The position numbers and the translations under genes are program-made. DNA of 64,000 bases from Candidatus Competibacteraceae bacterium (GTDB lineage Bacteria > Bacteroidota > Bacteroidia > CAIKAF01), in contig JACSSC010000058.1 of NCBI GenBank assembly GCA_014879445.1, forward strand, positions 39,536-103,535, given 5' to 3'. The notes beneath the pieces were generated by a model that saw nothing but the letters and a program-made list of their open reading frames with translations, was not told where the DNA came from and made no database searches. Below, piece after piece: positions 13,563 through 32,591 of the stretch. How positions within the stretch are numbered: position 1 is the first letter of the stretch; each line of letters starts with the position of its first letter.

Positions 13563-15509
13563 CTAATAGGCCGTAATTAGAAATTCTGTACGACGGTTAA
13601 GTGCTCTGCCTTTTTCGGTTTTGTTGCTTGCCACAGGTTGGGTTTCTCCAAACCCTTTATATGTCATTCTTTGCTCTGCTATGCCAAGAAAACTCAAATA
13701 ATCAAAAACCGCTTTGGCACGATTGTCTGAGAGTATCAAGTTGTCGTTATCATTTCCCACATCATCGGTATGACCCTGAATCACAAATGAAATGGTAGGA
13801 TTTGTTTTGAGAAATTCAGAAAATTCATCAATAATACGTTTGGCTTTCTCTGACAATTCATAAGAGTTAGTGGCAAAATTAATATCATTCAGACGATAAG
13901 ATTGCCCAACTTTGATTTTATCTGTTACCAACTCTACTTTCTCTGGCTTTCCTGAAGCCATCTCGTCTTTGGTTATTAATTTTGATGTAAATGCTATGCC
14001 TTCTTCTTTGATTGTCATAATATGATCATCGGTAGCCGTCACAATGGCTACATATGTTCCATCATCTTGATTAATATCAATTTTTGTAACTTCATTTGTT
14101 CGGGTATTCTTGATTTCAATTTGCGATGCCATCACTTCTTCTTCCTTATTTTTTACTGTACCTTCAACATAAATAACCTCTGTAGGTCGTGCTGTTTCAT
14201 ACAGATCAAATGTATAGATATCTAATCCACCCGGACCATTGAGTTTGTCTGAAGAATAATATCCGGTTTTCCCATCCAAACTAACAAAGAAACTTACATC
14301 ATCACCCTCTGTATTTATGGGCTTTCCTATATTTTTAGGTGAACTCCATTTTCCATTACTATCTTTTTTGGAATAAAAAATATCATAACCACCTAATCCC
14401 TTATGGCCTTTTGATGAGAAATATAGTGTCTGACTGTCGGAATGTAGAAAAGGAGTAAGCTCATTATCGGATGTATTGATTTCATGCCCCATATTGATTG
14501 CTTGCCCCCATTGCCCGTTTTCCTGCTTATAACAAACATATAAATCAACACCACCTAGCCCTCCGGGACGATTGGATGCAAAAATTAAAGTTTTTCCATC
14601 ATACGAAATAGTTGGCTGAGAATCCCAACTATCTGAGTTGATTGCCGAACCTGCATTCACAAAAGGTTGCCAAAATCCATCTTTCAATTCTGATTTCCAA
14701 ATATCGCAATATTCAACTTGATTATTAGCACATATAACAAAATACATTGTGCGATTATCTGCTGTTATGGTTGCTCCGCCATTATTATATTTATAATTAA
14801 AAGGTCGTGGCATTTCCTCTCCTTTATCAAATATCCCATTCTGCAATGAACTCCGGGTAAAAATCTCAACAAAATTAACGCCACTGTCATACGCTTTATC
14901 TAATGACTTCCCAGAAACCATTGTTTTTCGAATAAAGTAAAAGTGTCGGTTATCAGGAGAAATACTAGCCAAATATTCATCTTGAGGGGTACATACATTT
15001 GGCATGGGCTGAGGATTAAATGGTACAGGTTGGGAAAACAATGCTTCGTAATCTTTAATTTCTTTGAGCAACTGTTTTGCTATACCATAATCATTATCAT
15101 CTTTGATATCGAAAGACAGAAATTTTTCAAAATATGAAATAGCCGTCTTATAGATGGAAGCATCATAGGCAATGAGTCCTAAGAAAAAATGTGTGTATGG
15201 TGAGAAATCAGGACATATATCGCGAACCGACTCTAAGCGGTCTTTCGCCATGTCTTTTTTGCCTGATTTAAAATAACTAACGCCGAGATCAAAGAGGGCT
15301 TCGTAAAAGGCATTGTCAACGGCTACTGCATCATTCAACAATTTGCGTCGTTCGGTAATATTAGATTCGTTTAGGGCTTTGTTGTATAATTTTAAGGCGG
15401 ATTTTGTAGATGTGGGTTCGCACGCGGATTTATTAATCATAAAGTCCTGAGAGAACAATAGAGAAACGCTTCCAAATAAATACAACAGTAAAGTAAACAG
15501 TAATTTCAT
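13563..15509 (-). CDS. TPR + PD40 propeller + OmpA_C peptidoglycan-binding protein (PorE-like architecture)
   Basis: FASNRPGGLGGVDLY and YFSS.GH.GLGGYDIF PD40 repeats; INFATNS..GHTDDVG..LSDNRA..GFGE.QP..NRRTEF; start at 15509. Confidence 0.88.
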   Translation of the reverse strand: MKLLFTLLLYLFGSVSLLFSQDFMINKSACEPTSTKSALKLYNKALNESNITERRKLLNDAVAVDNAFYEALFDLGVSYFKSGKKDMAKDRLESVRDICPDFSPYTHFFLGLIAYDASIYKTAISYFEKFLSFDIKDDNDYGIAKQLLKEIKDYEALFSQPVPFNPQPMPNVCTPQDEYLASISPDNRHFYFIRKTMVSGKSLDKAYDSGVNFVEIFTRSSLQNGIFDKGEEMPRPFNYKYNNGGATITADNRTMYFVICANNQVEYCDIWKSELKDGFWQPFVNAGSAINSDSWDSQPTISYDGKTLIFASNRPGGLGGVDLYVCYKQENGQWGQAINMGHEINTSDNELTPFLHSDSQTLYFSSKGHKGLGGYDIFYSKKDSNGKWSSPKNIGKPINTEGDDVSFFVSLDGKTGYYSSDKLNGPGGLDIYTFDLYETARPTEVIYVEGTVKNKEEEVMASQIEIKNTRTNEVTKIDINQDDGTYVAIVTATDDHIMTIKEEGIAFTSKLITKDEMASGKPEKVELVTDKIKVGQSYRLNDINFATNSYELSEKAKRIIDEFSEFLKTNPTISFVIQGHTDDVGNDNDNLILSDNRAKAVFDYLSFLGIAEQRMTYKGFGETQPVASNKTEKGRALNRRTEFLITAY

Positions 15510-15605
15510 GCTCTTCTTTAATTCAATCATGATAAAAAACTCTCTGAAAGTAAATTTAGTATGCAGCATGAGAAAAAGTTACGATATCAATTTAAATTCA
15601 ATGGT

Positions 15606-16631
15606 TTAAGGTAATTTATTTTCAAAACTATCAAGTGATTTCTGCCAATTCCATGCCGAAAGCAATGCATCATGTAATGCATACTTCGCCTCCCAACCCA
15701 ACATTTTCTTGGCTTTATTGGGATTGGCCCAAACCTGCTCAACATCACCGTGTCTGCGAGGCGACAATCGTACCGGTATTTTCACACCGGTTGCTTCTTC
15801 AAATGCATGAAGCAGTTCAAAAACAGAAATCCCATTCCCTGTTCCAATATTAAAGACCTCTGGCGAATGTGTCGGCGTGAAACGCAATGCGCTCAAATGA
15901 GCATGCGCCAAATCATCCACATGAATAAAATCACGAATACATGAACCATCAGGCGTATCATAATCGTTGCCAAACACAGATAAAAATGGGCGTTGACCAG
16001 CTGCCGTTTGTGTTAGATATGGAACTAAATTGTTGGGTACGCCGGTTGGCAATTCGCCTATTTGGGCAGAAGGATGAGCGCCTATCGGATTGAAATAACG
16101 AAGTATGGTTGCATGTATTTGTGGGCTAACTCGACAAACATCAGCAATCATATCTTCGCATATTTTTTTGGTATTGGCATATGGCGATTGGGGTGAACCT
16201 AATGGCTCCAACTCAGTTACCGGCAAAATCTTGGGCTGTCCGTACACCGAACAAGAAGAAGAAAAAACCAAACGAGGAATGTCATATTCATTCATCATTT
16301 GCAGTACATTAATCATCCCCATCAGGTTATTATTATAATAATCCAAGGGCTTTTCTACTGATTCATTTACTGACTTATAAGCTGCAAAATGAATGACGCC
16401 ATCAAAAGGTGCATGTTGCCGACAAAAAAGGTTGAATGAAGTATAATCACAAATATTTAATTTTGCAAAAACCGGTTTTTTACCTGTAATTATGTTGATT
16501 CCATTCAATAACTGACCATCTGAAGCTGACAAATCATCCACAATACACACATCATAACCGGCCTCAAGCAACACAACTACTGTATGTGAACCTATATAAC
16601 CTGCACCTCCTGTTACTAAAATTTTACCCAT
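15606..16631 (-). CDS. galE: UDP-glucose 4-epimerase
   Basis: LVTGGAGYIGSHT, HFAAYKSV.ESV, YANTK, LRYFNPIGAH, RDFIHV; promoter element at 16651-16658. Confidence 0.96.
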   Translation of the reverse strand: MGKILVTGGAGYIGSHTVVVLLEAGYDVCIVDDLSASDGQLLNGINIITGKKPVFAKLNICDYTSFNLFCRQHAPFDGVIHFAAYKSVNESVEKPLDYYNNNLMGMINVLQMMNEYDIPRLVFSSSCSVYGQPKILPVTELEPLGSPQSPYANTKKICEDMIADVCRVSPQIHATILRYFNPIGAHPSAQIGELPTGVPNNLVPYLTQTAAGQRPFLSVFGNDYDTPDGSCIRDFIHVDDLAHAHLSALRFTPTHSPEVFNIGTGNGISVFELLHAFEEATGVKIPVRLSPRRHGDVEQVWANPNKAKKMLGWEAKYALHDALLSAWNWQKSLDSFENKLP

Positions 16632-16688
16632 GACAGCTGATATTTCTCTGCAAAGTTAGACATTCACGATAAAACAGTTACCGTATTT

Positions 16689-16886
16689 TTAATCCTTAAT
16701 TTCTTCGTAATCTACATAATCACCATCGTTTTGATGGCTTCCCCCTGATTTTTTATGATTTGATGTTCTATTCGTATGAGGCGCTGACTTTGATTGCTGA
16801 GAAGATGAATATATTAAATTCATTATAAACCGTACAACTACATACAATCCAATAATAATAAGCAGGGTTCGAAAAACACCAATCAT
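16689..16886 (-). CDS. DUF4834-like small membrane protein
   Basis: N-terminal TM helix, polar linker, C-terminal GDYVDYEEIK; start overlaps carB stop. Confidence 0.75.
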   Translation of the reverse strand: MIGVFRTLLIIIGLYVVVRFIMNLIYSSSQQSKSAPHTNRTSNHKKSGGSHQNDGDYVDYEEIKD

Positions 16887-19696
16887 TACTTGCTGAGGTA
16901 TAAATTACGTTCGTTATAAATTTTGATAAAAAACTTATCTTTCAATGATTCTATAAAATAAATTGCTTCGCCGGTTGATTTCATTTCTGGACCTAACTCT
17001 TTATTTACGCCCGGGAATTTATTAAAAGAAAATACAGGAATTTTAATGGCATAACCCTTTAAGTTCGGATTAAACGTAAAATCAGTAAGCTTGTGAGTCC
17101 CGAGCATCAATTTTGTTGCGTAATTTACATAGGGCTCTTGATATGCCTTGGCTATAAAAGGTACTGTACGTGATGCACGTGGATTGGCTTCAATCACATA
17201 TACTTTATCGCCTTTAATAGCAAACTGTATATTAATCAGGCCTTTTACACTCATAGCTAGGGCAATGCGTTTGGAATATTCTTCCATTTGCTCTACAACC
17301 AAAGCGCCCAGGTTGTAGGGGGGCAACACAGCATACGAATCGCCGGAATGTATGCCTGCCGGTTCGATGTGTTGCATCATCCCAATAACGCGACAATCTT
17401 TCCCATCGCAAATGGAATCCGTTTCTGCTTCAATGGTTCTTTCCAAAAAATGATCTAGCAGAACTTTATTCCCCGGAAAATCGCGAAATAAATCTACAAT
17501 ATGGGCCTCTAATTCATCTTCGTTTATCACGATTTTCATTTTTTGCCCACCCAGCACATAGGATGGCCTCACCAACAATGGGAAACCAAGTTGTCGGGAA
17601 AGTAATATTGCTTCTTCAGCATTGGTTACCGTACCAAATTCGGGGTAAGGAATATCCAACTCTTTAAGAAGTGTTGAAAAACGTCCCCTGTCTTCAGCCA
17701 AATCAAGCGAATCAAAACTTGTACCCATAACTGGGATTCCGTAACGATGCAGCTTTTCTGCCAATTTCAATGCTGTTTGCCCTCCCAACTGTACAATAAC
17801 GCCTTCGGGCTTTTCGTGTTGAATTATATCATAAATATGCTCCCAGAATACGGGCTCAAAATATAATTTATCAGCCGTATTGAAATCAGTAGAAACGGTT
17901 TCGGGATTACAATTTATCATAATCGTTTCAAAACCGGCCTCCTTAGCCGCCAAAACACCATGCACGCATGAATAATCAAATTCAATCCCTTGTCCGATAC
18001 GGTTTGGACCCGATCCCAAAATAACTACCTTACGTTTGTCGGTTACTACTGATTCATTTTCTTCCTCAAATGTAGAGTAATAATAAGGTGTATAGGCCTC
18101 AAATTCAGCAGCACATGTATCCACCAATTTATAAACACGCTGAATCTTATCTTCTTTTCTTCTCGCATACACTTCACTTTCAAGACAATCTAACAGGTGT
18201 GCCAGTTGCCTGTCTCCATATCCTTTTTGTTTGGCTGTTAGCAATATTTCGCGTGGAAGGTTTTGAATGGTAAATTGTTGAATAGATTTTTCAAGTGAAA
18301 CCAATTCTGCTATTTGATTCAAAAACCAGGGGTCAATTTGAGTGGCTTTATGAATGGTCGTAAATGGTATTCCAAGCTTAAATGCGTCATATACATGGAA
18401 TAATCTGTTCCAGGAAGGATGCTCCAAGCTATGTAGAATCTCATCTCGATTTCGTAATTCACGACCATCAGCCCCCAGTCCATTTCGATTAATTTCCAAC
18501 GATTGACATGCTTTTTGCAACGCTTCTTGAAAACTTCGTCCGATACCCATTACCTCTCCCACACTTTTCATCTGTAGGCCTAATCGTCGGTCTGATCCTT
18601 TAAACTTATCAAAGTTCCAGCGAGGAATCTTCACAATTACATAATCAAGTGTCGGTTCAAATAATGCACTGGTTTTGGTAATCGGATTTTCTAATTCATC
18701 TAAATGATACCCAATGGCAAGTTTGGCTGCAATACGTGCAATCGGATAGCCGGTTGCTTTTGAGGCCAAGGCAGACGAACGACTTACTCTAGGATTAATT
18801 TCAATGGCAATGATGTCTTCTGATTCTGGATTAACGGCAAATTGCACATTGCATCCGCCTGCAAAATTGCCGATAGATCGCATCATAAGAATAGCCATAT
18901 TTCGCATACGCTGAAATACAGTATCAGGCAATGTTAGCGCAGGTGCTACTGTTATTGAATCACCTGTATGAATTCCCATGGGATCGAAGTTTTCGATAGA
19001 GCAAATGATTACAACATTATCATTTGCATCACGCAACAACTCCAACTCATATTCTTTCCACCCGAATATGGACTGTTCAATCAATACTTCATGTATGGGT
19101 GAAGCATGAAGGCCGCGATTCAGTAATTCATCAAATTCTTCCTTTTTATGTACAAATGCACCTCCCGTTCCACCTAATGTAAATGATGGCCGGATGACGA
19201 GTGGAAAACCAATTTCCTGAGCAATTTCTTTTCCTTCCAAAAACGATTGTGCTGTTTTTGATGGAGGTACGCCTACCCCAATATCTATCATCAATTGACG
19301 AAATAACTCTCTGTTTTCTGTTCGATCTATTGCATCAATATCAACGCCAATAATCCTTACTCCATACTTTTCCCAAACCCCTGCTTCTTCACATTCCTTG
19401 CAAAGATTAAGGGCTGTTTGTCCTCCCATTGTAGGCAATACTGCATCTATCTTTTTTTCTTCCAATATTCGAATGATGGAATCCATTTCAAGTGGCAACA
19501 AATACACATAATCTGCCGTCACCGGATCTGTCATGATAGTAGCTGGATTGGAATTAATCAATGTAACCTCTATGCCTTCTTCACGTAACGATCGGGATGC
19601 CTGAGAGCCGGAATAATCAAATTCGCAGGCCTGGCCAATAATGATAGGCCCACTACCAATAATCAGAACTGATGAAATGCTTTTGTCTTTTGGCAT
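16886..19696 (-). CDS. carB: Carbamoyl-phosphate synthase large subunit (short form, 936 aa)
   Basis: MPKD..GSGPIIIGQACEFDYSG, NSNPATIMTD, IEINPRVSRSS, GSGPNRIGQGIEFDY, GPEMKSTGE; start moved to ATG 19696. Confidence 0.97.
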   Translation of the reverse strand: MPKDKSISSVLIIGSGPIIIGQACEFDYSGSQASRSLREEGIEVTLINSNPATIMTDPVTADYVYLLPLEMDSIIRILEEKKIDAVLPTMGGQTALNLCKECEEAGVWEKYGVRIIGVDIDAIDRTENRELFRQLMIDIGVGVPPSKTAQSFLEGKEIAQEIGFPLVIRPSFTLGGTGGAFVHKKEEFDELLNRGLHASPIHEVLIEQSIFGWKEYELELLRDANDNVVIICSIENFDPMGIHTGDSITVAPALTLPDTVFQRMRNMAILMMRSIGNFAGGCNVQFAVNPESEDIIAIEINPRVSRSSALASKATGYPIARIAAKLAIGYHLDELENPITKTSALFEPTLDYVIVKIPRWNFDKFKGSDRRLGLQMKSVGEVMGIGRSFQEALQKACQSLEINRNGLGADGRELRNRDEILHSLEHPSWNRLFHVYDAFKLGIPFTTIHKATQIDPWFLNQIAELVSLEKSIQQFTIQNLPREILLTAKQKGYGDRQLAHLLDCLESEVYARRKEDKIQRVYKLVDTCAAEFEAYTPYYYSTFEEENESVVTDKRKVVILGSGPNRIGQGIEFDYSCVHGVLAAKEAGFETIMINCNPETVSTDFNTADKLYFEPVFWEHIYDIIQHEKPEGVIVQLGGQTALKLAEKLHRYGIPVMGTSFDSLDLAEDRGRFSTLLKELDIPYPEFGTVTNAEEAILLSRQLGFPLLVRPSYVLGGQKMKIVINEDELEAHIVDLFRDFPGNKVLLDHFLERTIEAETDSICDGKDCRVIGMMQHIEPAGIHSGDSYAVLPPYNLGALVVEQMEEYSKRIALAMSVKGLINIQFAIKGDKVYVIEANPRASRTVPFIAKAYQEPYVNYATKLMLGTHKLTDFTFNPNLKGYAIKIPVFSFNKFPGVNKELGPEMKSTGEAIYFIESLKDKFFIKIYNERNLYLSK

Positions 19697-19727
19697 GATT
19701 TTCAGTATGTTAATGTTGGCCGGACAC

Positions 19728-19751
19728 AAAAAAACCGAACCAACGGTTCGG
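19728..19751 (-). terminator. Intrinsic terminator or attenuator in the carB leader
   Basis: Minus strand CCGAACC-GTT-GGTTCGG-TTTTTTT. Confidence 0.7.
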
Positions 19752-19755
19752 GATG

Positions 19756-19763
19756 CAAAACTA
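19756..19763 (-). promoter_or_regulatory. -7 promoter element TAGTTTTG upstream of carB
   Basis: Exact TAnnTTTG match; TTTA about 21 nt upstream as an imperfect -33. Confidence 0.6.
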
Positions 19764-19818
19764 ATGATTTGCTAATGGTTATAGTAAATAGTTATAAACA
19801 ATTATTCACAGCATCCAT

Positions 19819-20718
19819 TTATTTTTTCTCATCCGGCTGCACTTCTGTCTTTCCGGTTTTAATAAAACGAAATACCGAAATCAAATCCATAGCCAATTTA
19901 GCATCATCAATAATTAGATCAAAGCGATTCAGGTAACTCTTTTGAACATTATTCTCAAAATACTTAACGGCTTTTGTATTGTTGGAGCAAACCATATTAA
20001 CGCTTAATTGATTTTTTGCTACTACAACCCTAAATGACGCCACATTAAAATCAGCCATGTAAAACTCATAAGCCATAACCTTTTGTGCCCCTTTTGAATC
20101 CGTCTCACTAATAGAATAGGTAAGCTTGTTATTATTGCTTCTGTCAATGGTTAACATCATATTGTATTGCTTCCCATTGGCAGAATAACTTCTTTTAATG
20201 TTTGCTTCAATCCAATTATAAGCATCCGCTTCAGATGATGGTGCAACTTTTTCAACCGGCGATTCCTTCATGAGGTACAGTATGGCTTCACGAGCATCCC
20301 GCATCTTTTGCATGTCATCAAAATATATTGGAAAAAACTGCGAATATGAAGATTTATTACTAGCTGTTTGTTTCACTAACCTCTGATCGCCTTTAGCAAA
20401 GGCATGAATCTTTAACTCCTTGCTGGATGTAAGCTGCATGATTTTATTTGGCTCCAGATGCTCCAAAAAAAACTCAAAAGAAACCGTATTGCTTTTTCCT
20501 TTGGCATCAGCTTTTACAATGGTGAGGATGACTTGCCCTTTTCTTCCGGTTTCAAACTGAAAAGCATGCTGATACGTCAAACCGGGCTGTGTGGCTTGCG
20601 AACATTGTGAGGATAAAAATGTGCGGGCCTGATCAACTGATGTGAATTTGGCCTGAGACATTACATTTCCAAACATGATGAAAAATATTAACATTGTTAT
20701 TGCAAGTGACTTTTTCAT
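19819..20718 (-). CDS. Secreted hypothetical protein with two tandem ~130-aa repeats
   Basis: Signal peptide ending in SQ; DAKG..SFEF / DSKG..AYEF and LVK..SY..FDD / AVK..SY..IDD repeated. Confidence 0.75.
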   Translation of the reverse strand: MKKSLAITMLIFFIMFGNVMSQAKFTSVDQARTFLSSQCSQATQPGLTYQHAFQFETGRKGQVILTIVKADAKGKSNTVSFEFFLEHLEPNKIMQLTSSKELKIHAFAKGDQRLVKQTASNKSSYSQFFPIYFDDMQKMRDAREAILYLMKESPVEKVAPSSEADAYNWIEANIKRSYSANGKQYNMMLTIDRSNNNKLTYSISETDSKGAQKVMAYEFYMADFNVASFRVVVAKNQLSVNMVCSNNTKAVKYFENNVQKSYLNRFDLIIDDAKLAMDLISVFRFIKTGKTEVQPDEKK

Positions 20719-20839
20719 AATCAATACTCAAATTATTTATTTTACAAAGAAACAAAATTAATCTGTAATCCATACTCAACACCCCTATAAATTGTATTCC
20801 AGTTGAAAAATAACTAACATTGTTGTTTGCAATTAGTGT

Positions 20840-21748
20840 ATGAACCTTTTTTTTAACAAACAGACATCAGGCATATATCATTTCAGGTCGTACATGGCTG
20901 TTATCCTCATTACGCTGGGTTTCTTCTTTTTGGCTCAGATTCCCTTAGCAAATGTTGTGGCTCAAGCCGGCCAATCAAATGTTCTTTATTCACCGGCTAT
21001 TCAGCAGTTGATGCCCTATCCTTTGTTTTTTCTGCTAATCAATCTTCCATTTATTGCCGGTCTTGCTGCTTTATTGATTTTTTTCTGGTTATTTCATCGC
21101 TGCAATCCCAAAACGATAATCACCTCAGCCAATAGATTTCGTAAGGGAATGTTTGGTTGGGGATTATTCTCGGCTCTCATCGCTATTTTTATCACCGATT
21201 TGTATTATTATATCAAAGATCCATCAAATTTTATATGGCAATATTCCGCCGACCAATTTTGGACTTTCCTTCCTTTTGCCCTATTGATTTTCCCCCTCCA
21301 AATCGGATTTGAAGAAATTTTTTTTCGCGGTTATTTATTTCAAGGAATAAGCAGAAGCACACGTAGCATCATGATCGGATGGATATTAACATCAGCCCTA
21401 TTTGGGTTGGCACATAGTTTCAATCTCGAAATCAGAGAATTTGGATTTTGGAAAATGCTGCTCGTTTATATTACACTAGGTATGGGGTTGGGGCTAATTA
21501 CTATTTTAACAGAAGGCCTTGAATTAGCACTAGGATTTCATTTGATGAATAACCTCTATGTTGCATTAATCAAAACCTTTCCAGGTAGTTCATTAGATAC
21601 TCCTGCACTTTTTATGAGCCCACCACCCGACACTCAGTTTATTATTATTGAAACCATTTTTGGCATTTTACTTTTTATAATTTTGGCTTTAGCCCCTTAT
21701 TTAAAAAAAATACCTAAGCAACCCTTTTCAATAAATAACCGTTTATAG
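20840..21748 (+). CDS. CPBP (CAAX/Abi) family intramembrane metalloprotease
   Basis: QIGFEEIFFRGY, SALFGLAH, GLELALGFHLMNN; multiple TM helices. Confidence 0.92.
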   Translation: MNLFFNKQTSGIYHFRSYMAVILITLGFFFLAQIPLANVVAQAGQSNVLYSPAIQQLMPYPLFFLLINLPFIAGLAALLIFFWLFHRCNPKTIITSANRFRKGMFGWGLFSALIAIFITDLYYYIKDPSNFIWQYSADQFWTFLPFALLIFPLQIGFEEIFFRGYLFQGISRSTRSIMIGWILTSALFGLAHSFNLEIREFGFWKMLLVYITLGMGLGLITILTEGLELALGFHLMNNLYVALIKTFPGSSLDTPALFMSPPPDTQFIIIETIFGILLFIILALAPYLKKIPKQPFSINNRL

Positions 21749-21753
21749 GCAAA

Positions 21754-22467
21754 ATGAGATTGATGATAAACACTTTTCGATACCTAATTTTACTTGCTAT
21801 GATATTTGTATTTTCCTTGCCGGGAAATGCTCAGGATGTTGAAACTGAAGATTTAAGCCCTCCACCCCGCAGAGGATACTTATTTGATGTAATGCTTGAT
21901 ATGGGTGTGCCTCACTATGTTTACAATCCTGCCAACGCAGGTGCTTTTGAAGCCATTGGCAATATTAGTGCAAGTTTTCATACACGGGTTTGGAAAAATC
22001 TTTCTATTGGCCCGATGTTACGATTTACCGGATTTAATATTTGGAATCCCCGCTTTAATCAATCTAATCCTTTAGCATTAACTTTTATGGCTACTGCCGA
22101 TATCCGCTATGAAGTTCGGCTAAGCGATCGCTTCTCATACATTCCTGCCATCAATGCAGGGGTTGGTTTTATCTATTACAACAACTTATTATTACCCAAA
22201 AAAGGTGAATTTCATACACCACCAAAAACGCTTACTGATTGGGGCGCTATTGTGAACATTAACAATGGATTTTACTATTTCGTTAAACCAAACAAACAAA
22301 TGGGAATTGGCCTGATATTAGGCGCAACCTACTTTTCTCATGAGTTTAGCAAAAAAGATACAGGTCTTCAAAGTGACGAAACGCTTTATAATAAAAGTGA
22401 CGAGGGGCCTTCTATCAATCTTACTATCGGGTTTGGATTAATCACAAAATTTGGTCGTGCAGAATAG
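21754..22467 (+). CDS. Putative outer-membrane beta-barrel protein
   Basis: Signal peptide (GNA-Q), alternating amphipathic strands, terminal INLTIGFGLITKF. Confidence 0.6.
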   Translation: MRLMINTFRYLILLAMIFVFSLPGNAQDVETEDLSPPPRRGYLFDVMLDMGVPHYVYNPANAGAFEAIGNISASFHTRVWKNLSIGPMLRFTGFNIWNPRFNQSNPLALTFMATADIRYEVRLSDRFSYIPAINAGVGFIYYNNLLLPKKGEFHTPPKTLTDWGAIVNINNGFYYFVKPNKQMGIGLILGATYFSHEFSKKDTGLQSDETLYNKSDEGPSINLTIGFGLITKFGRAE

Positions 22468-22478
22468 TTTTATTAAAA

Positions 22479-23954
22479 CTAATCTGGCATATACTGAAAG
22501 TTAAGCGCTCCGCACTTATCCAAATCTGAAGCAATCGTTAATCTTCGCTTCGACCCATTCGGTTCAATAACAGCAATGGCAGCGGTATTCGGGTGAATAC
22601 GTCCTAGATTATGAGCATATAATATCAGATAATTATTTGTATTCGGCAATACTTTAATCTTAACTCTCTTTTTCTCTTTTGTAACCTCATACTCTTCTAA
22701 CACCCATACTCCATTGATGTTAAGTGAAATTGTATCACCATCATAAACTGAATTATCCCAAATTTCGATTTCAAACTCTTCTTGTTTAACAATAAAATCG
22801 CCTACTTTCTGCACTTTTCTATCTCCTACTTCTGTTGGAATATTATTTTCCGTATAAATAACATTGGGTTTATTTTCAATAACAACCTGAATCGTATCTT
22901 TCACCTCAACATCAAATACTTGCACAGTATCAGGATCTATAATTGTGATTAAGGTATCTTTCTCGGGTTGAGGAAATGACCATATCTTTATCGCTCGATC
23001 ATATCCGGCAGTAATAATAATTGAGTCATTTTTCCAAAATAAAAAAGATCGAACAACATCCTTATGTCCCAATAATACCTGCTGCAACGACATATTGTCT
23101 GATTTGTAAATATTTACTCTTTCACTATCATCTCCAGAAATAAAGAGTGACTTATTGCTATTAAACACAATACGACTGTATCCTCTACCATCACTGCTGC
23201 CGGCGGAAATGGTTTTGTTAAACTTGTATTGAGAACCATTCCAATTCCATCGTATGACTTTTCCATCACACCAACCATACACCCAATCTTTTATAGAGGT
23301 AATATTATTCACATAAAACCCTGTCCATAGTGCATCTATCAACTTATCAGATTTATAATCCCAAATCATTACACCATACCCCATGCTGAACATGATATAT
23401 TGGTTTGAGTAATCAAGAATTCCATCTGTGATACCATAATTAGTCGTAGAACTATTGGGTAAATAAACGGTTTGAACATTTGATGTATTTGTAAGAGATG
23501 CTTTAAGAAGGCCGGTAAACTGACCGCTGGTTTGTAAGGCATAGCCGCCGAAATATACATGTCGATCATCAGGAGTTAGAACTCCAAAATTAACACGATC
23601 GTAGGGAGCCGATATGGTATGTAGAAGATTTCGAGAAGAAAATTCAAATACTTTAACTTTTCCATCATCACCTGCCGTAACAAACTTGTCGCCACGTGTA
23701 TTAAAAAGTATTGAATTGATGGATTTTTGATGAGCTCTGATTTTCTGAATTACTTGCATACTCTGTAAATCCCATATAAATAGATACCCTCCATAATCTC
23801 CACTAAGCATATGCTTGCCATCCGGAGCAAGCACAATAATTTCTACTTCGTGTTTGTGATCTGTTTTGGTGTCTAACAATACATAGGGCTGTTGAAGAAA
23901 TGCAGGAATTGCCAAACACAATAATAGGAGCGTTGAAAGCAGTCGGTTTCTCAT
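22479..23954 (-). CDS. Secreted WD40-repeat protein with uncharacterised C-terminal beta domain
   Basis: AHQKSIN..VTAGDDGKVKVF, GHKDVV..ITAGYDRAIKIW; C-terminal WDNSVYDGDTISLNING..AHNLGRIHPNTA. Confidence 0.85.
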   Translation of the reverse strand: MRNRLLSTLLLLCLAIPAFLQQPYVLLDTKTDHKHEVEIIVLAPDGKHMLSGDYGGYLFIWDLQSMQVIQKIRAHQKSINSILFNTRGDKFVTAGDDGKVKVFEFSSRNLLHTISAPYDRVNFGVLTPDDRHVYFGGYALQTSGQFTGLLKASLTNTSNVQTVYLPNSSTTNYGITDGILDYSNQYIMFSMGYGVMIWDYKSDKLIDALWTGFYVNNITSIKDWVYGWCDGKVIRWNWNGSQYKFNKTISAGSSDGRGYSRIVFNSNKSLFISGDDSERVNIYKSDNMSLQQVLLGHKDVVRSFLFWKNDSIIITAGYDRAIKIWSFPQPEKDTLITIIDPDTVQVFDVEVKDTIQVVIENKPNVIYTENNIPTEVGDRKVQKVGDFIVKQEEFEIEIWDNSVYDGDTISLNINGVWVLEEYEVTKEKKRVKIKVLPNTNNYLILYAHNLGRIHPNTAAIAVIEPNGSKRRLTIASDLDKCGALNFQYMPD

Positions 23955-24045
23955 GATTTTTTTCACTTGTACAAATAATCAAACGCAAAGTTCATATAAT
24001 CTGTGTAAATTTTATTTATTTTATCTTTTTTTTGTAAATCACTCT

Positions 24046-32402: not shown

Positions 32403-32500
32403 GGGGCAAGTTACTTACATCGCACCGCTACAACCTTCTGCCCTTGCTTTCTTCCGAACCTGGGGGATTCAAAGGGAGCTGGTCGTATAAGACTTACCCC
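32403..32500 (-). ncRNA. ffs: Signal recognition particle RNA (small bacterial type)
   Basis: Minus strand GGGGTAAGT...CAGGTTCGGAAGAAAGCAA...ACTTGCCCC; helix-8 GGAA tetraloop motif, complementary ends, promoter TAATTTTG at 32505-32512. Confidence 0.95.
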
Positions 32501-32591
32501 GGCACAAAATTACAATTTGTTTTGCCTTTACCAAACATCCCATACATAAGCCGAATCAGTTTTCTATCTTTGCCACCTAATAACTACGAAT

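Follow-up and report, generated by a model that had tools for sequence, protein, structure and literature searches.

A predicted promoter-proximal terminator hairpin at the putative start of the carB transcript in a genus of sludge-dwelling Bacteroidota

Results

A terminator-like hairpin directly follows a promoter box upstream of carB

Why would a transcript begin with a terminator? The question is raised by the region upstream of carB, the gene for the large subunit of carbamoyl-phosphate synthase, in a 64,000-nucleotide stretch of DNA (the window) from a bacterium whose closest named relatives are metagenome-assembled genomes of uncultured Flavobacteriales. There, a promoter-like box is followed after four nucleotides by a GC-rich hairpin and a run of seven T, and the predicted first base of the carB transcript is also the first base of the stem. 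We give an even chance to the view that this element attenuates carB from a promoter-proximal position, its stem opening with the transcript's first base. That its control lies in start-site switching between CTP and GTP is a more tentative proposal, possible rather than probable.

On the minus strand, the element opens with TAGTTTTG (19756..19763), a -7 box of the Bacteroidota primary sigma factor and the proposed carB promoter. The 4-nt spacer CATC (19752..19755) corresponds to -4 to -1 under the published -12 to -5 spacing of the box, and leads into the 7-bp hairpin CCGAACC-GTT-GGTTCGG (19735..19751), composed of the 5' arm CCGAACC (19751-19745), the GTT loop (19744-19742), and the 3' arm GGTTCGG (19741-19735). 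The predicted +1 is C19751, and G19749, at a pyrimidine-purine step, is the first purine downstream. Abutting the stem is a T7 run (19728..19734; the U-tract of the RNA), which together with the hairpin constitutes the signature of an intrinsic terminator. From the T7 run to the carB ATG (19696-19694) there are 31 nt, and from the 3' end of the hairpin 38 nt with U7 in between. The positions that an earlier note on this DNA had given for the element proved exact on the minus strand.

Both parts of the element resemble those of intrinsic terminators: the stem is GC-rich (7 bp, of which 5 are G-C pairs, with a loop of 3), and the T7 directly abuts it (T6 in both congeners described below). In a consensus scan of positions 15000-24000, the carB hairpin ranks first among 10 terminator-like sites, compared with 6.0 +/- 2.8 sites in shuffled sequence. 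Its predicted fold of -9.7 kcal/mol has a z score of -2.73, and 3 of 200 shuffles fold equally well. At gathering scores, signal recognition particle (SRP) RNA is the only known RNA family in the window, with nothing at carB, and Rfam searches of seven pyr loci, including three carB leaders, returned only a chance-level anti-hemB match at E values up to 5.

Box, stem, and T-run are conserved within the genus

A search of 41 related genomes gave a carB match in 36. The order of box, hairpin, and T-run precedes carB in all three congeneric genomes that hold the 5' region of the gene, namely the window's own genome (G000; 2.69 Mb in 62 contigs), G001, and G003; in G004 carB sits at a contig end, and G002 has no carB match. 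The design reads TATTTTCG-CAT-CCCGAAC-CGAGA-GTTCGGG-T6 in G001 and TACATTTG-TTTC-CCGAATC-GAT-GATTCGG-C-T6 in G003, the spacer being CATC in the former, where its last C joins the stem, and TTTC in the latter. The stem stays constant at 7 bp, with a compensatory change from C-G to U-A in G003 and an inner pair lost and an outer pair gained in G001. Box, stem, T-run, and a TCCGG motif are kept among the three congeners, whereas the sequence between these conserved blocks has diverged.

G000, G001, and G003 each have a single copy of the pattern CCGAAYN5RTTCGGNTTTTT, always before carB, and none of the 24 other family genomes searched has any. A repeat or mobile palindrome was rejected as an explanation, the pattern being single-copy and present in only 3 of 27 family genomes. 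Judged by these sequences, the carB box-hairpin element is specific to the genus. Further congeners were sought with the CarB N terminus, and a metagenome scan yielded nothing closer than 79% identity, while a scan of a genome collection, with near relatives outside its scope, gave at most 80% identity.

The genes that precede the element differ among the three genomes. In the window, it is preceded by an open reading frame (ORF) co-directional with carB (19819..20724, minus strand; 301 aa, no family match), whose stop lies 67 nt before the hairpin; other terminators in G000 mostly lie 20-30 nt after a stop. In this genome the hairpin probably also ends the transcript of the upstream ORF. In G001 and G003, however, the upstream gene is divergent, being transcribed from the other strand and away from carB, and the box, hairpin, and T-run are nevertheless kept. 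The hairpin is therefore not merely the terminator of an upstream gene in these two genomes, and the objection that it does nothing but end the upstream gene, which the earlier note had named as fatal to its proposal, fails.

All three congeners also share the block TGTGAATAATT (19800..19810, minus strand), which lies about 37-47 nt ahead of the carB box and within which TGTGAATAA(T/A)T is unchanged despite the differing upstream genes. The block has 8 copies in G000, compared with 2 of its reversed control. Its identification as an arginine-repressor site is not supported, as no PF01316 domain was found in G000, which is estimated to be 100% complete.

Downstream of the hairpin, the conserved leader block TCCGGCCAAC (19715..19724, minus strand) aligns with the sequence after the -7 box at carB of the sister genus g2, and the window's T-run with its following TGTC-CGGCC aligns with TACTTTTG-TGCC-CGGC there, TACTTTTG being the box of g2. 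Judging from this alignment, the present T-run may be derived from an earlier box or from a start rich in T. In a genome of another family (locus L021, on contig C13 of G027), some 70-50 nt upstream of the carB ATG, we observed TAAATTCG-CGAA-G-T7-GGTTCG, in which T7 stands at the predicted start beside GGTTCG, the motif of the 3' arm of the window hairpin. In evolutionary terms, this locus might connect the hairpin design with a start at a T-run.

The box belongs to a promoter class that predicts a start at the first stem base

Across the window as a whole, TANNTTTG is not enriched (81 found versus 75.5 +/- 9.1 expected), and one box alone therefore means little. Its distribution relative to genes in G000 is another matter: among 1054 upstream regions, defined by crude gene calls, the motif occurs 84, 128, and 71 times in three successive 10-nt bins that together span 40 to 11 nt ahead of gene starts, with the peak of 128 in the bin 30-21 nt upstream, and only about 5-13 times per bin far upstream. 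The variants TAnnTTCG and TAnnTTTA are likewise enriched before genes, TAnnTTCG with 23 in the peak bin versus 0-13 elsewhere. The TAnnTTTG box class is a working promoter motif of this genome. TTnnTTTG, in contrast, is flat before genes at 7-27 per bin, and a T-run plus G is therefore not a likely -7 box; neither these statistics nor the sequence of G003 support it as one. There are 197 terminator-like hairpins in G000 (stem of at least 6 bp, at least five T), and in four of them a box ends no more than 8 nt before the stem, with at least one of the four (on contig C48) looking like chance. A single co-occurrence of box and hairpin is thus unremarkable, and it is the conservation that counts.

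In a map of transcription start sites in Flavobacterium psychrophilum, the sigma-A box lies at -12 to -5 (excerpts of PMC9723704). This spacing makes the fifth nucleotide after the G of the box, C19751, the +1 at carB, which is the first base of the stem. The earlier note had arrived at the same base by a different route, from the SRP RNA of the window, which it took to begin exactly 4 nt after its own box. Its prediction for carB agrees with the experimentally derived spacing, but its route does not hold up as an observation: the SRP RNA match (RF04183, 106 bits) starts inside the box, at 32506, with 7 unpaired model positions, and its terminal helix begins at 32500/32499, which is 5-6 nt past the G. 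At carB, the nucleotides in the fourth to seventh positions after the box are C, C, C, and G in all three species, and the pyrimidine-purine step nearest to the predicted start is C19750-G19749.

Loss of the first nucleotides weakens the predicted hairpin

Folding predictions were compared for RNAs that begin at the first stem base and RNAs that begin at the G. The energies are -9.7 versus -5.9 kcal/mol in G000, where the first stem base is C19751, -10.4 versus -4.6 kcal/mol in G001, where the stem and the folded RNA begin one nucleotide 5' of the predicted +1, and -7.5 versus -3.1 kcal/mol in G003. The suggestion in the earlier note that a slightly later start would weaken the stem is borne out by these computations, loss of the first 2-3 nt lowering the stability by 3.8-5.8 kcal/mol in all three species. 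This loss makes a start-site switch like that of pyrC physically plausible. In the fold prediction, the register favored by the G-started RNA of G000 draws three of the run's U's into pairing.

When the full leader is folded, the minimum free energy structure contains an alternative helix in which the hairpin loop and 3' arm pair with TCCGGCCAAC, at -10.9 in G000 and -8.2 in G003; this helix is absent in G001. In G000 (19715-19744, minus strand), the loop and 3' arm, GUUGGUUCGG, pair with the downstream CCGGCCAAC, and the counterpart pairing in G003 is kept by two matching changes (GAUGAUUCGG with CCGGUCAUC) but is not kept in G001. The block could be a pairing partner in read-through RNA; because TCCGGCCAAC is transcribed after the termination point, it has no antiterminator role.

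A proposed attenuator and its relation to known systems

In the mechanism that we propose, the -7 box (19763-19756) would set the start at or within ~3 nt of C19751, and the first 24 nt of the RNA would consist of the 7-bp GC-rich hairpin and U7. A share of the carB transcripts would stop as a ~24-nt RNA and the remainder would read into carB, while in the window genome the same hairpin would end the transcript of the upstream ORF. Transcripts begun at C19751 or C19750 would carry the complete stem right against the U-run; those begun at G19749 or A19748 would have a 5-bp stem, or would fold in a register that consumes U's, and would terminate less. Expression would then follow the CTP/GTP ratio as at pyrC and pyrD, with termination rather than masking of the ribosome-binding site as the output. 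Because no RNA would lie 5' of the stem, classical control by an antiterminator or alternative folding is excluded, and the position of the start would be the simplest way to tune read-through. The remaining options are start-site choice, a factor acting in trans, and no regulation. Of the regulated models, the CTP/GTP start-site switch would be the most economical, being in keeping with the geometry, the energies, and the pyrC precedent.

That precedent comes from pyrC and pyrD of Escherichia coli and Salmonella, in which C's lie at the favored distance and a G lies 2 nt further, the two extra 5' C's completing a hairpin that is not available to the RNA started at G; at pyrC this hairpin masks the ribosome-binding site, so that control is translational (excerpts of PMC6524683). 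In the same way, carB has C19751, C19750, and G19749, and by computation only the longer RNA forms a stable 5' hairpin. The carB hairpin nonetheless stands at least 31 nt ahead of the ATG, with U7 behind it, and the ribosome-binding site is not sequestered, which sets the element apart from this family. The sigma factor and promoter type also differ, and start switching at carB is a proposal. The element would act like pyrC but with termination as its output. In Bacillus subtilis pyrG, which starts with GGGC, G's are added at low CTP and pair with the 5' side, rich in pyrimidines, of an attenuator further downstream (excerpts of PMC7039003). As at pyrG, an initiation event would decide the fate of a leader terminator without protein or ribosome, but the predicted carB start is C-C-G-A-A rather than a G-run, and the 5' arm of the terminator would be the 5' end of the RNA itself. 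The earlier note had described the pyrC/pyrD and pyrG precedents in the same terms as the excerpts of PMC6524683 and PMC7039003.

The element shares its GC-rich stem, short loop, and U-run with ordinary and leader terminators such as those of greA and rimP-nusA, from which it differs in that the stem sits on the predicted first nucleotide, the product would be only ~24 nt, and carB is a metabolic gene rather than one for a transcription factor. Terminators controlled by ANTAR proteins have two small hexaloop hairpins, the second of which overlaps the 5' side of the terminator; carB has one hairpin with a loop of 3-5 nt, and no RNA upstream of it if +1 is as predicted; a search with PF03861 (ANTAR) gave no match in G000, and likewise none in control genomes.

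RNA contigs and points that weigh against the attenuator

The window stretch is contained in 20 public sequencing runs, 13 of them on record as RNA and all from sludge, wastewater, or bioreactors. We compared contigs, not raw reads, from four RNA runs of four studies, with no DNA run alongside. In run X3, contigs cover 19546-19727 and 19748-19898, and in X6 they cover 19425-19735 and 19749-20120, the carB-side contig of X6 containing the whole T-run; X9 has no contig between 19519 and 20013 and is uninformative either way. The contigs thus break at the hairpin in two of the three runs that cover the region, from two studies, with no loose ends there, and the upstream ORF is covered by RNA contigs. 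As a weak hint, the breaks fit an upstream transcript that ends, and a carB transcript that begins, at the hairpin; they fit less well, again as a weak hint, with a carB start downstream of the T-run.

Several points weigh against an attenuator at carB. Contigs cannot show where transcripts start or end, their depth here is 2-6, DNA may be present in such libraries, and in X1 a single contig bridges the hairpin (18945-20685). At the spacing expected for a -33 TTG, none precedes the carB box. Transcripts in Bacteroides prefer purines as first nucleotides (excerpts of PMC7366714), and most carB transcripts may start at G19749 or A19748, which would give a weak hairpin and little termination ever. 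The sequence box-N2-4-CC(C)G is found at 51 putative promoters of G000, and a C-C-G start is therefore no hallmark of pyrimidine genes. The G001 box has the variant form TATTTTCG, and with +1 on the fifth nucleotide the stem there would shrink to 6 bp. The phylum-wide alignment of carB upstream regions that the earlier note had proposed bears out its expectation in part: the arrangement is kept in the genus, but other genera lack it (it is present in 3 of 105 distinct Bacteroidota carB upstream regions), and the covariation is not significant, amounting to one pair in three related sequences and being reached by 168 of 500 shuffles. A hairpin-T-run leader is also absent at carA, pyrR-pyrB, pyrG, and pyrD of G000. 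Finally, we infer rather than observe the start site, termination after only 24 nt, and the dependence on nucleotides.

Alternative explanations

If the hairpin and T-run were only a terminator or insulator for upstream transcription, possibly a relic left when the upstream gene was replaced, carB would rely on read-through or on a start downstream of the T-run, for which the T-run plus G (TTTTTTTG) would serve as a degenerate -7 box. Initiation near 19722 would yield a leader of typical length (26 nt), the co-directional ORF of G000 ends 67 nt upstream of the hairpin with no other terminator, the T-run and G followed by TGTC-CGGCC align with box-TGCC-CGGC of g2, and several carA genes of related genera have a hairpin, T9, and G with no canonical box. 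We still regard this explanation as unlikely, given that TTnnTTTG is unenriched before genes, that G003 has an A after the T-run, and hence no TTTG, beside a perfect upstream box, and that in G001 and G003, with their divergent upstream genes, no upstream transcript has to be stopped but the stem has persisted, with a compensatory change. The carB-side RNA contigs, which reach 19727 and 19735 and so extend upstream of the start that such a model predicts, are a weak further point against it. A different role for the same stem would be protection of the carB mRNA from 5'-end-dependent decay, the T-run being incidental and termination slight. 5'-terminal stem-loops stabilize bacterial mRNAs, the carB stem starts on the predicted +1, leaving 0-1 nucleotides unpaired, and leaders in G000 are generally A/T-rich. 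What makes this quite unlikely in our view is the conservation, in all three species, of 6-7 T abutting the stem, the defining signature of a terminator, together with the break of RNA contigs at the hairpin in two of three covering runs.

The inverted repeat CCGAAY-N5-RTTCGG might instead act as DNA, as an operator over +1 for a dimeric carB repressor. Its two conserved 6-bp half-sites, separated by a variable 5-bp spacer (CGTTG, CGAGA, CGATG), occupy a classical repressor position, and there is another conserved block upstream of them. In G003, however, both half-sites change symmetrically, as expected for RNA pairing and not for a protein site, and an operator leaves the conserved T-run unexplained; the pattern occurs once per genome, which provides no regulon, and no candidate regulator was identified, with no ArgR domain found in G000. 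We consider an operator very unlikely. Least probable of all, by our estimate, is that a trans-acting RNA-binding protein sets termination in response to UMP or UTP, for which one candidate is the PyrR homologue encoded before pyrB (NF003549, 186 bits), present in 36 of 41 related genomes. Against it stand the lack of any Rfam match at the pyr loci, PyrR-binding site included, at E values up to 5, and a loop that is not conserved (GUU, CGAGA, GAU). Attenuation by PyrR in Bacillus uses an anti-antiterminator design, for which there is no space when a 17-nt hairpin begins on +1.

A different predicted start motif at carB elsewhere in the Bacteroidota

About half of the carB promoters elsewhere in the Bacteroidota are predicted to begin differently. 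Of the 105 distinct carB upstream regions, 52, from Cytophagales and Flavobacteriales, carry AATTT(G/A) behind the box, separated from it by 3-5 nucleotides that are mostly C/G, although carB loci are related by descent and these are not independent counts. The A of AATTT is the fourth to sixth nucleotide after the box, which is the predicted start (for example at L065, L090, L108, L081, and L072, among loci L007-L112). Only 13 of 335 generic G000 promoters show the pattern, and at carB it is kept even where the flanking sequence cannot be aligned. Neither carA (29 loci) nor pyrR-pyrB (28 loci) of the relatives shows such a start.

In E. coli, pyrBI starts with AATTTG, at which high UTP leads to reiterative, non-productive initiation, and the P1 promoter of carAB starts GUUUGC after a GC-rich stretch (excerpts of PMC6524683 and PMC7039003). 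By this likeness, the AATTT start is a candidate phylum-wide UTP sensor at carB. A literature search on reiterative transcription in Bacteroidota returned only unrelated work. The window genus has no AATTT start at carB and carries the hairpin instead. Although E. coli carAB P1 serves the same gene, carB, the T-run of the window genus lies at +18 to +24, behind the hairpin, and not in the first few nucleotides as at pyrBI and carAB P1; a UTP-sensitive reiterative mechanism therefore does not apply to the window element. It is conceivable, if doubtful, that the element is a protein-free 24-nt sensor of the CTP/GTP ratio, in which a C or G start would decide the terminator stem, and that it replaced an ancestral AAUUUG start that itself sensed UTP.

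carB and the other pyrimidine genes of the genome

The carB gene of the window (16886..19696, minus strand) encodes a protein of 936 aa that matches NF003671 with 1412 bits. It is a short form, matching positions 1-921 of the 1058-position profile and lacking the C-terminal region, which we take to be the allosteric domain that carries the feedback sites. Its N terminus, MPKD..., aligns from residue 1 in relatives. A search with OTCace_N finds pyrB as the single carbamoyltransferase of G000, and the ArgR N-terminal domain (PF01316) was not found in this genome; the carbamoyl phosphate enzyme probably serves pyrimidine synthesis only. With one carbamoyltransferase, no ArgR, and a short CarB, control at the level of expression would matter.

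The other pyrimidine loci are arranged differently. In G000, carA is preceded by box-TAGCC-AAAATTCC-ATG, and pyrG by box-TTA-CCCG. A CCCG start as a mark of pyrimidine genes was rejected, pyrG having box-N3-CCCG but many unrelated genes having it too. At pyrD (L199:1336-1350, contig C53) we found TATCTTTG-TGGC-ATG, in which the predicted start falls on the A of the start codon; the pyrD mRNA appears, from this spacing, to be leaderless. The PyrR homologue lies directly upstream of pyrB (L243 / L197:929-1480, G000:C39:43134-43685; cut-off of NF003549, 138 bits). Although the PyrR protein is present, PyrR-binding RNA was not found in any of the leaders around carB, carA, pyrR-pyrB, pyrG, and pyrD in the Rfam searches of the seven loci described above. 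No shared leader was found at carA (29 loci) or pyrR (28 loci) of relatives. At carA of related genera (L219, L221, L222, L225, L232, L208), a hairpin, T7-T9, and then G lie upstream, with no canonical TAnnTTTG within 170 nt; these loci either depend on read-through or use the T-run plus G as a promoter element.

Other promoter-terminator pairs in the genome

Two further genes of G000 have a leader terminator. The greA leader (L201:78-150, G000:C17:22677-22749) consists of TATATTTG, 8 nt, a 12-bp hairpin, T5, and 24 nt to the ATG, the gene being identified by NF001263 (184.5 bits). The leader of a rimP-like gene (L202:78-138, G000:C41:12677-12737) consists of a box, 24 nt, a 6-bp GGGGAC hairpin, T6, and 8 nt to the ATG; its best match, NF002531, scores 105.8 bits, below the cut-off of 123. 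These leader terminators before greA and rimP indicate that promoter-proximal terminators are in use in this genome. The leaders of greA and nusA are autoregulatory in E. coli. In a third pair (L203:526-576, minus strand; G000:C5 ~5259), TATTTTTG is followed by 8 nt, a 10-bp hairpin, and T9. No gene was called in the next 130 nt, and the pair could represent a tiny RNA or a promoter and terminator without a gene.

Discussion

Neither such a carB element nor any in Bacteroidota is described in the literature that we found, the supplementary tables of PMC9723704 and PMC7366714 being outside its scope, and the literature searched likewise holds no description of how pyrimidine synthesis is regulated in this phylum. 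If the start-site model were true, the carB element would be the smallest known attenuator, with the logic of pyrC rewired from translation to termination in a phylum largely without Shine-Dalgarno-based initiation. If that model were false, the element would still be a clean, conserved case of a promoter firing into a terminator. The AATTT start may prove more useful than the hairpin element: it occurs at carB in many cultured Cytophagales and is a testable candidate for nucleotide sensing by the unusual sigma-A polymerase of the Bacteroidota. For the sludge-dwelling genus of Bacteroidota represented in the window, the sequences suggest that the hairpin probably throttles carB and may read nucleotide levels.

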